Shown here piece by piece: positions 3,001 through 9,000 of a stretch of DNA of 64,000 nucleotides. The position numbers were made by a program. The DNA is from Escherichia coli (GTDB taxonomy: Bacteria > Pseudomonadota > Gammaproteobacteria > Enterobacterales > Enterobacteriaceae). Each line of letters starts with the position of its first letter. Position 1 is the stretch's first letter. Location: NCBI RefSeq assembly GCF_036507355.1, contig NZ_AP027877.1. One strand, given 5' to 3'.

Positions 3001-6000
3001 CTACGACGCCTGGCCGCACAAAGTCAGTCTCGGCGTCGAGTATCAACATACCTTTAAGGCGATTAATCAACGTAACGGAGAGCGCAACAACGCGTTTCTC
3101 ACCATTGGAGTGCACTGGTAAATGCGTAAGTTCATTTTCGTATTGCTGACACTGCTTTTGGTCAGCCCTTTTTCCTTTGCGATGAAAGGTATTATCTGGC
3201 AACCACAAAACCGTGATAGTCAGGTTACCGATACCCAGTGGCAGGGGCTGATGAGTCAGTTACGTTTGCAAGGCTTCGATACCCTGGTTTTGCAATGGAC
3301 CCGTTACGGCGATGCATTTACCCAGCCAGAACAGCGCACGTTATTGTTTAAGCGGGCCGCAGCTGCGCAACAGGCTGGCCTGAAGCTGATTGTCGGGCTG
3401 AACGCCGATCCGGAATTTTTTATGCACCAGAAACAGTCGTCCGCAGCGCTGGAAAGCTATCTTAATCGCCTGCTGGCTGCCGATCTCCAGCAAGCCAGAT
3501 TATGGAGCGCCGCGCCTGGCGTAACGCCGGATGGCTGGTACATCAGCGCGGAAATTGACGACCTGAACTGGCGCAGCGAAGCCGCCCGTCAGCCTTTGCT
3601 AACATGGTTAAACAACGCGCAGCGGCTGATTAGCGATGTTTCAGCAAAACCGGTTTATATCAGTAGTTTTTTCGCCGGAAACATGTCGCCAGATGGCTAT
3701 CGCCAACTGCTGGAACACGTTAAAGCAACCGGCGTTAATGTCTGGGTACAGGATGGCAGCGGCGTGGATAAACTTACCGCTGAACAGCGTGAACGTTATC
3801 TACAGGCCAGCGCCGATTGCCAGAGTTCCGCCCCAGCAAGCGGCATTGTTTATGAACTGTTTGTCGCCGGCAAAGGCAAAACCTTTACAGCGAAACCGAA
3901 ACCGGACGCAGAAATTGCCTCGCTGTTAGCGAAACGTTCCTCTTGCGGTAAAGACACTCTCTATTTCTCTCTGCGCTATTTGCCCGTCGCGCACGGCATT
4001 CTCGAGTATTAAATCTCCTCCAGGTAAGTCGGGTACGACCTGGCTTACCTCTTTCGCTCTCGTCAGAATTCCATCAAGATTAATTGCTAAAAAGCGTGCT
4101 AAAGAAAGAAGATCGTTATCGGCGAACGGGCCGATCACTCATGCAGGAAGCATAGATCCTTTGAGCGGAGTTTCTGATATCTGAGGAGTGCGAAATGCAA
4201 TTGAGCAGCAGTGAACCTTGCGTGGTGATCCTGACCGAAAAAGAGGTAGAGGTAAGCGTCAATAACCATGCTACGTTTACCCTTCCGAAAAACTACCTGG
4301 CCGCCTTCGCGTGCAACAATAACGTCATTGAACTCTCAACGTTAAATCACGTATTAATCACCCACATCAACCGTAACATCATCAACGATTATCTGTTGTT
4401 TTTAAATAAGAACTTAACCTGTGTAAAGCCCTGGTCGCGGCTGGCTACCCCGGTTATCGCTTGTCATAGCCGTACACCGGAAGTGTTCCGGCTAGCCGCC
4501 AACCACAGCAAGCAGCAACCTAGCAAACCCTGCGAAGCGGAGTTGACGCGCGCATTGCTTTTTACCGTATTGTCTAACTTTCTTGAGCAATCGCGGTTTA
4601 TTGCCCTACTGATGTATATCTTACGCAGCAGCGTCCGCGACAGCGTCTGCCGCATTATTCAAAGCGATATTCAGCATTACTGGAATCTGCGAATTGTCGC
4701 CAGTTCGCTATGTTTAAGCCCCAGCCTGCTCAAAAAGAAATTAAAAAACGAAAATACCAGCTATAGCCAGATTGTCACAGAGTGTCGTATGCGTTACGCC
4801 GTACAGATGTTATTGATGGATAACAAAAATATCACTCAGGTGGCGCAATTATGTGGCTATAGCAGCACGTCGTACTTTATCTCTGTTTTTAAGGCGTTTT
4901 ACGGCCTGACACCGTTGAATTATCTCGCCAAACAGCGACAAAAAGTGATGTGGTGAAGGGCAAAGCGGAAACGGATAAGACGGGCATAAATGAAGAAGAA
5001 ATGGCGCGCCCTGCAGGATTCGAACCTGCGGCCCACGACTTAGAAGGTCGTTGCTCTATCCAACTGAGCTAAGGGCGCGTTGATACCGCAATGCGGTGTA
5101 ATCGCGTGAATTATACGGTCAACCCTTGCTGAGTCAATGGCTTTTGATCTGGTTGCTGAACAAGTGAACGACCGCGTCTGATTTTCTGATTTATTTCGCT
5201 ATAGCGGCAAACAAATGCACACCGCTGCGCATCTGAATCAAGAAAACCCGTATTTTCATGTATCAAAGTACAATTTACCGCCCTAACGGAAAATTGTCCG
5301 CTCCTATGAGACTGGTAACTATGAAACCAACGTCGGTGATCATTATGGATACTCATCCTATCATCAGAATGTCTATTGAAGTTCTGTTGCAAAAAAACAG
5401 TGAATTGCAGATTGTCCTGAAAACGGATGATTACCGCATAACCATCGATTATCTCCGAACCCGTCCTGTTGATTTAATCATTATGGATATAGACTTGCCC
5501 GGAACAGACGGTTTTACCTTCCTGAAAAGGGTAATGACTCCAACTTATTGATAGTGTTTTATGTTCAGATAATGCCCGATGACTTTGTCATGCAGCTCCA
5601 CCGATTTTGAGAACGACAGCGACTTCCGTCCCAGCCGTGCCAGGTGCTGCCTCAGATTCAGGTTATGCCGCTCAATTCGCTGCGTATATCGCTTGCTGAT
5701 TACGTGCAGCTTTCCCTTCAGGCGGGATTCATACAGCGGCCAGCCATCCGTCATCCATATCACCACGTCAAAGGGTGACAGCAGGCTCATAAGACGCCCC
5801 AGCGTCGCCATCGTGCGTTCACCGAATACGTGCGCAACAACCGTCTTCCGGAGCCTGTCATACGCGTAAAACAGCCAGCGCTGGCGCGATTTAGCCCCGA
5901 CATAGCCCCACTGTTCGTCCATTTCCGCGCAGACGATGACGTCACTGCCCGGCTGTATGCGCGAGGTTACCGACTGCGGCCTGAGTTTTTTAAGTGACGT

Positions 6001-9000
6001 AAAATCGTGTTGAGGCCAACGCCCATAATGCGGGCTGTTGCCCGGCATCCAACGCCATTCATGGCCATATCAATGATTTTCTGGTGCGTACCGGGTTGAG
6101 AAGCGGTGTAAGTGAACTGCAGTTGCCATGTTTTACGGCAGTGAGAGCAGAGATAGCGCTGATGTCCGGCGGTGCTTTTGCCGTTACGCACCACCCCGTC
6201 AGTAGCTGAACAGGAGGGACAGCTGATAGAAACAGAAGCCACTGGAGCACCTCAAAAACACCATCATACACTAAATCAGTAAGTTGGCAGCATCACCAAT
6301 TATCTTAATCCTTTGACAAGGAAATAAGTCAGTTCCAGATTTACAACGCCATCATGGACGAAAAATGAAGCTTTCAATCTCAGCGACCTCAGCGACGGTG
6401 CGCCTAACCTTCGCAAGAGGTCGCTTCACGCGATAAATCTGAAACGAAACCTGACAGCGCGCCCCGCTTCTGACAAAATAGGCGCATCCCCTTCGACCTA
6501 CGTAACAGATGGAATCCTCTCTCTGATGGCAGCAAAGATTATTGACGGTAAAACGATTGCGCAGCAGGTGCGCTCTGAAGTTGCTCAAAAAGTTCAGGCG
6601 CGTATTGCAGCCGGACTGCGGGCACCAGGACTGGCCGTTGTGCTGGTGGGTAGTAACCCTGCATCGCAAATTTATGTCGCAAGCAAACGCAAGGCTTGTG
6701 AAGAAGTCGGGTTCGTCTCCCGCTCTTACGACCTCCCGGAAACCACCAGCGAAGCGGAGCTGCTGGAGCTTATCGATACGCTGAATGCCGATAACACCAT
6801 CGATGGCATTCTGGTTCAACTGCCGTTACCGGCGGGTATTGATAACGTCAAAGTGCTGGAACGTATACACCCGGACAAAGACGTAGACGGTTTCCATCCT
6901 TATAATGTCGGTCGTCTGTGCCAGCGCGCGCCGCGTCTGCGTCCCTGCACCCCGCGCGGTATTGTCACGCTGCTTGAGCGTTACAACATTGATACCTTCG
7001 GCCTCAACGCCGTGGTGATTGGCGCATCGAATATCGTTGGCCGCCCGATGAGCATGGAACTGTTGCTCGCAGGTTGCACCACCACCGTGACTCACCGTTT
7101 CACTAAAAATCTGCGTCACCACGTAGAAAATGCCGATCTGTTGATCGTTGCCGTCGGCAAGCCAGGCTTTATTCCCGGTGACTGGATCAAAGAAGGCGCA
7201 ATTGTGATTGATGTCGGCATCAACCGCCTGGAAAATGGCAAGGTTGTGGGCGACGTCGTGTTTGAAGACGCGGCTAAACGCGCCTCATACATTACGCCTG
7301 TTCCGGGCGGCGTTGGCCCGATGACGGTTGCCACGCTGATTGAAAACACGCTACAGGCGTGCGTTGAATATCATGATCCACAGGGTGAGTAACATGGCGA
7401 CATTTTCTTTAGGTAAACATCCGCACGTTGAGCTGTGCGACTTGCTGAAACTGGAAGGCTGGAGCGAAAGCGGCGCGCAGGCGAAAATCGCGATTGCCGA
7501 AGGCCAGGTGAAAGTCGACGGTGCGGTTGAAACGCGCAAACGCTGCAAAATCGTCGCCGGTCAGACAGTGAGTTTTGCAGGTCACAACGTACAGGTTGTT
7601 GCCTGATCCCTTTCCCGGCCTGTATCAACAGGCCAGTTCTCTTTTCAGACTTTTGCCCTCTACGCCCCGTTCATCCATGCTGATAGCATCGACATTTTGC
7701 CGAAGCGACCATCATGCCAACCGTTATTACGCACGCCGCCGTTCCCCTTTGCATTGGTTTAGGGTTGGGTTCGAAAGTCATCCCTCCGCGTCTTTTATTT
7801 GCCGGAATCATCCTGGCGATGCTGCCCGACGCCGACGTATTGTCGTTTAAATTTGGCGTTGCTTACGGCAATGTTTTTGGTCATCGCGGGTTTACCCATT
7901 CGCTGGTGTTTGCGTTTGTTGTCCCGCTGTTATGTGTGCTGATTAGACGCCGATGGTTCAGGGCTGGGCTGATTCGCTGCTGGCTGTTTTTAACCGTCTC
8001 GTTGCTATCGCACAGCTTGCTGGATTCGGTAACTACTGGCGGTAAGGGCGTTGGCTGGCTGTGGCCGTGGTCAGATGAACGCTTTTTCGCTCCCTGGCAG
8101 GTGATTAAAGTCGCGCCGTTTGCATTGTCTCGTTACACCACAGCGTACGGGCATCAGGTGATTATTTCTGAATTGATGTGGGTGTGGTTGCCGGGGATGC
8201 TACTGATGGGAATGTTGTGGTGGCGCAGACGATAACCGGATGCGAAAACTCGCATCCGGCAATAGCGCAATTACTTACGACGCCAGGTGGTCCCTTGCGG
8301 GCCATCTTCCAGCACGATCCCCATCTCGTTAAGACGGTCACGCGCCGCATCTGCCGCCGCCCAGTCTTTCGCTTTACGGGCATCCAGACGCTGTTGAATT
8401 AACGCTTCAATCTCAGCCACTTCGCTGTCGTCTGCCTGCGCGCCGCTTTGCAGGAACGCTTCCGGTTCTTGCTCCAGCAGGCCCAATACAGCGGAAAGTT
8501 TACGCAGGTGAGATGCCATTGCATTCGCCGCTGCCATATCTTCTGCTTTCAGACGGTTCACTTCACGCGCCATATCAAACAGCACGGAATAGGCTTCCGG
8601 GGTGTTGAAATCGTCGTCCATCGCTTCAATAAAGCGCGCTTCAAACGCTTCGCCACCGGCAGGCGCAACGGTTTTATCTGTGCCGCGCAGCGCAGTGTAG
8701 AGACGCTCCAGCGCCGCACGCGCCTGCTTCAGGTTCTCTTCGCTATAGTTCAGCTGGCTGCGATAGTGGCCCGACATCAGGAAGTAACGCACGGTTTCCG
8801 CGTCGTAGTATTTCAGCACATCACGCACGGTGAAGAAGTTACCCAGCGATTTGGACATCTTCTCGCGGTCAACCATCACCATCCCGGAGTGCATCCAGTA
8901 GTTCACATACTGGCCATCATGCGCACAGGTGGACTGAGCGATTTCGTTCTCGTGGTGCGGGAACATCAGGTCTGAACCGCCGCCGTGGATATCAAAGTGG

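Follow-up and report, generated by a model that had tools for sequence, protein, structure and literature searches.

An IS1-associated deletion of most of fimZ and the sfm fimbrial operon at a recurrent IS1 target in Escherichia coli

Introduction

Classical deletions promoted by the insertion sequence (IS) IS1 were reportedly described in the gal region by Reif and Saedler in 1975, and for IS26 an intramolecular replicative transposition giving inversion is likewise said to have been described. IS copies lacking a target-site duplication (TSD) have been attributed either to adjacent deletion or to recombination between copies (PMC11708052). Transposition of IS1 has been linked to AT-rich, H-NS-bound DNA (PMC3000339), and among fimbrial loci sfmA is found in 65% of E. 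coli genomes and is absent from phylogroup B2, the sfm operon being incomplete in Shigella (PMC3604780). The present analysis concerns a 64-kb stretch of E. coli contig NZ_AP027877.1, hereafter the window, in which a single IS1 separates a truncated fimZ, an orphan response-regulator gene, from folD, and the sfm operon that lies between these genes in K-12 is missing. The arrangement is almost certainly the result of an IS1-associated deletion. Both of its ends are used by IS1 in other strains, and the route by which it may have formed is weighed below.

Structure of the IS1 joint

The features that make up the joint are as follows.

5321-5529, + strand: fimZ', the 5' remnant of the orphan response-regulator gene, 209 nt long (69 codons plus 2 nt)
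5521-5529: left flanking 9-mer CCTGAAAAG, the target copy if IS1 integrated there
5530-6297, - strand: complete IS1 (IS1A-like), 768 bp
5545-6048, - strand: insB', an open reading frame (ORF) of 167 aa
5967-6242, - strand: insA, an ORF of 91 aa
6298-6306: right flanking 9-mer AATTATCTT
6298-6525, + strand: kept part of the folD-sfmA intergenic region, 228 bp, forming the folD upstream region; aligns to K-12 L001 4961 to 4743
6526-7392, + strand: folD, intact, an ORF of 288 aa

Past 5529, after 209 nt or 69.7 codons, the window no longer matches K-12 fimZ, apart from one ambiguous G at 5530. From 6298 on, the window aligns to the folD-sfmA intergenic region of K-12, so that folD starts 228 bp beyond IS1. 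When the joint was aligned to intact references (K-12 and TB06052), its two flanks proved to lie 6.3 kb apart, and no matching 9-bp duplication appeared. The flanking 9-mers CCTGAAAAG and AATTATCTT are unrelated, with a longest common k-mer of 4 nt. No duplication of the target was found beside IS1 at any length from 8 to 14 bp, the 20-bp flanks sharing k-mers of at most 4 nt, and a decayed or shifted duplication of 4-14 bp was sought at the same flanks with no result. The 8-9 bp direct duplication on both sides that marks a simple IS1 insertion is missing; the locus instead shows the features of an adjacent deletion, namely one IS1, no TSD, and the joining of sequences that lay apart in the ancestor. 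A sequence-only reading of the window had described this joint in the same terms, as about 70 codons of fimZ running into the IS1 terminal repeat, the folD upstream region on the far side, unrelated 9-mers and no target duplication. The k-mer comparison and the K-12 alignment bear it out with exact coordinates, and the K-12 order on which it relied (folD, sfmACDHF, fimZ, argU) is correct.

The element is the sole IS1 copy, and the sole IS, in the 64-kb window. Its 768 bp are bounded by imperfect inverted repeats of ~23 bp starting GGTGATGCTGCC... and GGTAATGACTCC..., and both are intact: the right inverted repeat (IRR, 5530-5552) begins with GGTAATGACTCCAACTTATTGAT at 5530, and the left one (IRL, 6275-6297) appears as the reverse complement of GGTGATGCTGCCAACTTACTGAT ending at 6297. 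The insA and insB' frames are present together with the A6C programmed -1 frameshift site (AAAAAAC at about 5985-5991, IS1 position 307). Identity to most PGAP-labelled IS1A/IS1B family transposase copies at the locus is 99.1-99.7%, and the CP131_Sichuan copy, labelled IS1A family by PGAP, matches the element at 100%.

Extent and consequences of the deletion

The missing DNA measures 6,311 bp against K-12 MG1655 (L001 4962-11272, equal to NC_000913.3 557,961-564,271) and 6,317 bp against TB06052, the closer intact relative. Lost are fimZ codons 70-210, the genes sfmF, sfmH, sfmD, sfmC and sfmA, and, on the sfmA promoter side, the 251 bp of intergenic DNA nearest to sfmA. A tblastn search with the K-12 proteins SfmA, SfmC, SfmD, SfmH and SfmF gave no match at E<=1e-3 within the 64-kb window, and the sfm chaperone-usher operon, which is intact in TB06052 and L022, does not stand between fimZ and folD. 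The absence of the operon had been noticed in the sequence-only reading, and tblastn and the K-12 alignment agree with it, two thirds of fimZ having gone as well.

The tblastn match of FimZ is limited to residues 1-71, at 98.6% identity to the K-12 protein, and of the full 210 aa with their receiver and C-terminal GerE domains the window keeps residues 1-69 only. Beyond the joint the fimZ' frame stays open for 7 codons of IS1 until a stop at 5549-5551, so that its product has 76 aa, 69 of them native and 7 encoded by IS1. Its Pfam Response_reg match is partial (profile positions 1-64 of 111), and no Pfam match to the GerE/LuxR helix-turn-helix domain was obtained in this product. By this domain content, fimZ' is a null allele, a gene remnant with a partial receiver domain and no DNA-binding domain. 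For annotation, fimZ should be entered as a pseudogene remnant and the 76-aa FimZ'-IS1 product should not be reported as a gene. An alternative ORF of 97 aa (5258-5548) matched, in a protein look-up, only one 593-bp metagenome scaffold.

The strain is thus predicted to be unable to make Sfm fimbriae and to be without FimZ. The FimZ-controlled fim operon of Salmonella has its positional orthologue in E. coli sfm and not in fim (PMC3604780), and over-expression of FimZ impairs flagellar motility (bioRxiv 10.1101/840991). As far as Ogawa et al. (2022) are cited in PMC12711010, the fimbrial genes reported to be under FimZ control in E. coli are those of the sfm operon. The sequence-only reading had raised an effect of fimZ loss on type 1 fimbriae in trans; this suggestion finds no support, as the reported target is sfm and no evidence for FimZ control of the E. 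coli type 1 (fim) operon was found in the literature searched. Because its target sfm is also gone, the loss of fimZ would add little predictable effect.

On the other side of the joint, folD sets the right-hand limit of tolerable deletion. The window FolD is identical to the allele of strain 504838, and a sigma-70-like match at 6451-6479 (a consensus match only) is kept upstream of the gene. In the genomes examined, IS1 lies between 12 bp upstream and 17 bp downstream of the folD-side position of the window, so that folD expression evidently tolerates it there. The folD upstream region also holds a 9-bp tandem duplication (CTCAGCGAC twice, window 6379-6396) that is single-copy in HCP6S3_I2 and GN25.

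Recurrent IS1 targeting between fimZ and folD

The IS1 flanks of other genomes were mapped to TB06052, in which fimZ occupies 6337-6969, sfmF to sfmA 6972-12611, and folD starts at 13091. The left and right ends given here are the last and the first reference position kept on each side of IS1. The searches used one IS1 orientation and ~20 loci were inspected, so that orientation statistics are biased.

Window: left end 6545, right end 12863, deletion
HCP6S3_I2: left end 6544, right end 12857, deletion
PCP07083: left end 6719, right end 12874, deletion
LR-33: left end 11611, right end 12874, deletion
LR-17-1: left end 7797, right end 12880, deletion
H7: left end 6374, right end 12851, deletion
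504838: left end 6781, right end 11711, deletion
0H26: left end 6389, right end 12037, deletion
VE-V11-M: left end 6484, right end 10817, deletion
EC3: left end 6484, right end 11858, deletion
A37: left end 6484, right end 12776, deletion
GN25: no left end, 12863-12871, simple insertion with TSD AATTATCTT
DX6 and CP131_Sichuan: no left end, 12874-12882, simple insertion with 9-bp TSD TCCTTAAAC (DX6) or TCCTTAGAC (CP131_Sichuan)
Strain 144: no left end, 12851-12859, simple insertion with TSD AGGTATTTC

Besides that of the window, the locus has undergone at least 10 independent IS1-bounded deletions. The folD side is a cluster of targets: five IS1 junction positions (reference 12851, 12857, 12863, 12874 and 12880) fall inside 30 bp upstream of folD. 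One of them, 12874, is occupied by simple insertions with TSD in DX6 and CP131_Sichuan and is the right end of deletions reaching to 6719 (PCP07083) and 11611 (LR-33). The right junction of the window is a real IS1 integration site, because GN25, an unrelated strain with sfm intact, carries a simple IS1 insertion that matches it to the nucleotide and in orientation, with AATTATCTT duplicated.

The left junction is likewise reused. The join of CCTGAAAAG to GGTAATGAC recurs on seven short-read contigs and one short metagenome scaffold (L004-L009, L031), which differ from the window by 0.75-1.65% overall and show 3-8 differences in the adjoining 450 bp; on L006 the IS1 end at this position is of another variant. 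These contigs represent independent IS1 arrivals at the same nucleotide, in at least 3 or 4 other haplotypes, and not one inherited allele. The contigs of other backgrounds end inside IS1, and the far flank of IS1 is not on them.

The deletion of HCP6S3_I2 is near-identical to that of the window, with ends 1 bp and 6 bp away, and arose independently; neither structure is derivable from the other. A common origin of the two was considered and rejected: the right flank of HCP6S3_I2 keeps 6 native bp lost in the window and its left flank is 1 bp shorter. The sequence difference of 1.3% over the 12.7 kb aligned to the window also disfavours it.

A second left end, 6484, pairs with three right ends, 10817 (VE-V11-M), 11858 (EC3) and 12776 (A37), so that the 6484-type genomes form a series of nested deletions anchored at a single IS1 end. 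In the three examined (L057, L014 and L015, in that order) the right ends lie in sfmD, in the sfmC-sfmA spacer and upstream of sfmA. The corresponding fimZ-IS1 left junction pattern, at fimZ nt 148, is matched by at least 40 complete genomes.

Strain F829 (L032, NZ_OY754443.1 3317500-3325500) has two inverted IS1 copies, one in fimZ and one at the AATTATCTT junction; the latter is opposite in orientation to the window copy and abuts the same nucleotide. The 9-bp target GTCACTGTG stands as an inverted duplication beside both copies, and between them lie inverted sfmH and fimZ fragments and an IS903B. This arrangement is diagnostic of inversion by intramolecular IS1 transposition between these two regions, of which F829 is a natural product. 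In a separate observation, a contig of run ERR3328621 (L027, positions 1-26) shares the YbcI allele of the window and shows an IS1 end, in opposite orientation, inside sfmD.

The G+C content of the locus is 38-49%, against 53-57% in its flanks, and both junctions fall in its most AT-rich 400-bp bins. No earlier description of IS1 at fimZ/sfm, or of these recurrent breakpoints, was found in the literature searched. A bolder proposal, that fimZ-sfm-folD is a paired, nucleotide-precise hot spot at which almost the same ~6.3-kb deletion arises convergently in unrelated lineages, is considered rather unlikely. If true, it would mean that H-NS/IHF DNA architecture presents both sites or that selection favours the loss of sfm and fimZ; the alternative to both is that a cryptic operon is decaying neutrally.

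Origin of the deletion

The sequence-only reading had preferred an IS1-mediated adjacent deletion over a simple insertion. Its negative half holds, as there is no TSD and the flanks belong 6.3 kb apart; its positive half, the one-step route, does not follow from the joint, as recombination between IS1 copies gives the same structure. A one-step adjacent deletion by intramolecular replicative transposition is nevertheless slightly favoured over IS1-IS1 recombination, at a probability a little better than even. By this route, a simple IS1 insertion at the AT-rich hot spot between folD and sfmA would come first, with duplication of AATTATCTT and a GN25-like state as the result. The transposase would next link the IS1 ends to CCTGAAAAG in fimZ, another favoured site of that chromosome. 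Where this reaction ends in deletion, the chromosome would retain fimZ', IS1 and AATTATCTT followed by folD, and the intervening segment of ~6.3 kb would leave as a non-replicating circle with a second IS1 copy.

Three observations speak for the one-step route, two of them from other strains; the GN25 insertion at the right junction and the AT-rich setting of both targets are counted in its favour too. The inversion in F829 supports it, since the deletion product of the same reaction would resemble the window, and the nested deletions on one fixed junction tilt the balance towards deletion driven by the transposase. The third observation, on the order of events in the window lineage, comes from its closest relatives. 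L025 (GCA_905398585.1) and L028 (four SRA runs) are 99.985% identical to the window over 6.5 kb and begin in IS1 at the same right junction, and the only contigs on which the 76-aa FimZ'-IS1 product turned up are 0.75-1.65% divergent from the window. That the relatives share the right junction, with the product unrecorded in them, weakly suggests that the right junction is the older one in the lineage and that the deletion then ran leftward into fimZ.

Several points weigh against the one-step route. Recombination between two direct IS1 copies leaves an identical final structure, and the window alone does not discriminate between the two. The left junction has been reached independently by IS1 elsewhere, which makes a second independent insertion there plausible. 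No simple-insertion ancestor of the window lineage was recovered, and the want of a record of the 76-aa product for the L025 and L028 assemblies, in an index of called genes, is negative evidence.

The strongest competitor is a two-step origin, in which direct IS1 insertions in fimZ (TSD CCTGAAAAG) and upstream of folD (TSD AATTATCTT) were followed by RecA-dependent recombination that deleted sfm and one IS1. It is a serious possibility, somewhat short of an even chance. Both junctions equal, to the nucleotide and in orientation, IS1 junctions of unrelated strains (GN25 on the right, L004-L009 on the left), the locus gathers IS1 copies at five end positions within 30 bp, and recombination between IS copies is a standard cause of missing TSDs (PMC11708052). 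However, a genome with two direct IS1 copies around an intact sfm was not found among the ~20 loci inspected, in a search biased to one orientation and with close relatives that are short-read assemblies breaking at IS1; the sole two-copy case, F829, has inverted copies; and nested deletions from one fixed junction are explained more simply by transposase-driven deletion. Clade mates could decide between the routes. Sfm reads together with the junction of TTCTTAAATTATCTT to GGTAATGAC would mean that the ancestor had a simple right-site insertion and that the window deletion came later, whereas a second IS1 junction of ...GCATCACC to CCTGAAAAGGATCAAAC would reveal a two-copy intermediate and favour recombination.

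A deletion independent of IS1, with later IS1 insertion or capture, or the import of the deletion allele from another lineage by homologous recombination, is highly improbable. IS capture at breakpoints without TSD has been proposed for other elements (PMC11708052), and recombination is frequent in E. coli, but both ends fall exactly where IS1 integrates in other strains, which would not be expected of a break made without an IS. There is also no sign of an imported tract, because the flanks of the junction carry the lineage's own variants (e.g. 5216 and 5231 on the left) and match clade mates at 100% and 99.985% identity.

Still less probable is an assembly artefact in which two IS1 copies around an intact sfm-fimZ were collapsed into one and 6.3 kb was dropped. 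Repeat collapse is a known failure of assemblers; the order fimZ', one IS1, folD is nevertheless present in several independently finished genomes, the window is contiguous for 64 kb through IS1, and no Sfm-coding DNA occurs within it. Finally, a simple IS1 insertion with a decayed target duplication in a lineage that never had sfm has a vanishingly small probability in spite of the ~35% of E. coli genomes without sfmA (PMC3604780), and is refuted by the alignments to intact references: fimZ codon 70 forms the left flank, from which the right flank is 6.3 kb distant in all of them (K-12, TB06052 and L022), the 9-mers share at most 4 nt, and sfm stands in an ancestral position shared with Salmonella fim (PMC3604780).

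Lineage and neighbouring genes

Over window 6298-31000 (24.7 kb), a region carried by 5,109 of the 5,426 complete RefSeq E. coli genomes, no complete genome exceeds 98.9% identity. TB06052 is the closest over these 24.7 kb right of IS1 (98.9%), and its envY also adjoins argU without a prophage. Draft assemblies reach 100% identity over window 1-5046 and 99.985% right of IS1, and such drafts, with SRA runs, are the only representatives of the source lineage. A Shigella origin, considered because of the distance to the complete genomes, is not supported, given one IS in 64 kb, the retention of sfmA in published Shigella, and draft assemblies with 100% identity over the left flank.

Left of the joint the gene order is nfrA, ybcH, envY, argU, fimZ', with the following features.

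149-3121: nfrA, the leftmost gene in this order
4195-4956, + strand: envY (AraC-type regulator), an ORF of 253 aa; ybcH lies between nfrA and envY
5002-5078, - strand: argU tRNA-Arg(UCU) with an unoccupied prophage attachment site (ARAGORN)

In the window envY is followed directly by argU without a prophage between them, and the order envY, tRNA-Arg, fimZ is likewise annotated in HCP6S3_I2, TB06052, 504838 and others. Relatives with 100% identity over window 1-5046 depart from it at 5046, within argU, and continue into an ompT-appY-DLP12-like prophage. A DLP12-like prophage is therefore variably present within one clone, these relatives carrying it and the window site being empty. At the window argU both ompT and appY are absent and the attachment site is empty (draft comparisons L018-L021 and L042), and GCA_905398585.1 combines the right IS1 junction of the window with a DLP12-like lambdoid prophage at argU in the same assembly.

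Two further regions of the window vary or are unusual. Downstream of purK, at about 12867-12937, the copy number of a ~70-bp repeat differs from that in the near-identical L025 and in other strains, a difference visible as overlapping BLAST segments. At 46433-63979 (- strand), Big_13 Ig-like repeats abound in three successive ORFs (700, 2781 and 1221 aa), the third (1221 aa) having FG-GAP and RTX repeats in addition; genes for an ABC transporter (720 aa) and an HlyD-type protein (391 aa) come next. Together these genes look like a giant type 1-secreted adhesin locus. A stop at 61877-61879 splits the first and second ORFs, which share one frame; the third is read in another frame than the second, with which it overlaps near 53436-53488. 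The gene may be disrupted or sequence errors may be present. The locus also contains an internal 3.1-kb repeat, 74% identical (55393-58492 and 58683-61783).

Comparison with known systems

The window event resembles the IS1-promoted adjacent deletions in having an intact IS at the joint, no TSD and, by the proposed route, one end at a pre-existing site and the other at a new target, and the nested sets at the locus share one end as in that class. It differs from them in being read from a natural isolate without its ancestor. Cases from the long-term evolution experiment (LTEE) involve mostly IS150, and there the ancestral insertions were observed, unlike in the window. IS-IS recombination (PMC11708052) yields the same end product, in which each flank is half of a different target duplication; it requires a two-copy intermediate, of which none was found for the window lineage among the loci inspected. 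With IS26-type inversion the link runs through F829, which shows the same signature at this locus, an inverted 9-bp duplication and an inverted IS1 pair; the window would be the deletion outcome, although it keeps no such diagnostic duplication itself. The natural losses of sfm (PMC3604780) likewise show a dispensable and patchy operon, but that paper presents neither IS1 as the agent nor recurrent breakpoints, and Shigella retains sfmA whereas the window has lost it too.

In conclusion, the event is an ordinary IS1-associated deletion, a known kind of biology that leaves the picture of IS1 and of fimbrial regulation unchanged, while this allele and the recurrence of its breakpoints do not seem to have been described in the literature searched. 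The locus is a compact natural example of IS1 eroding a cryptic AT-rich fimbrial operon, and with simple insertions, nested deletions and an inversion with its diagnostic duplication side by side, it offers a teaching and benchmark case for IS-aware structural-variant calling.

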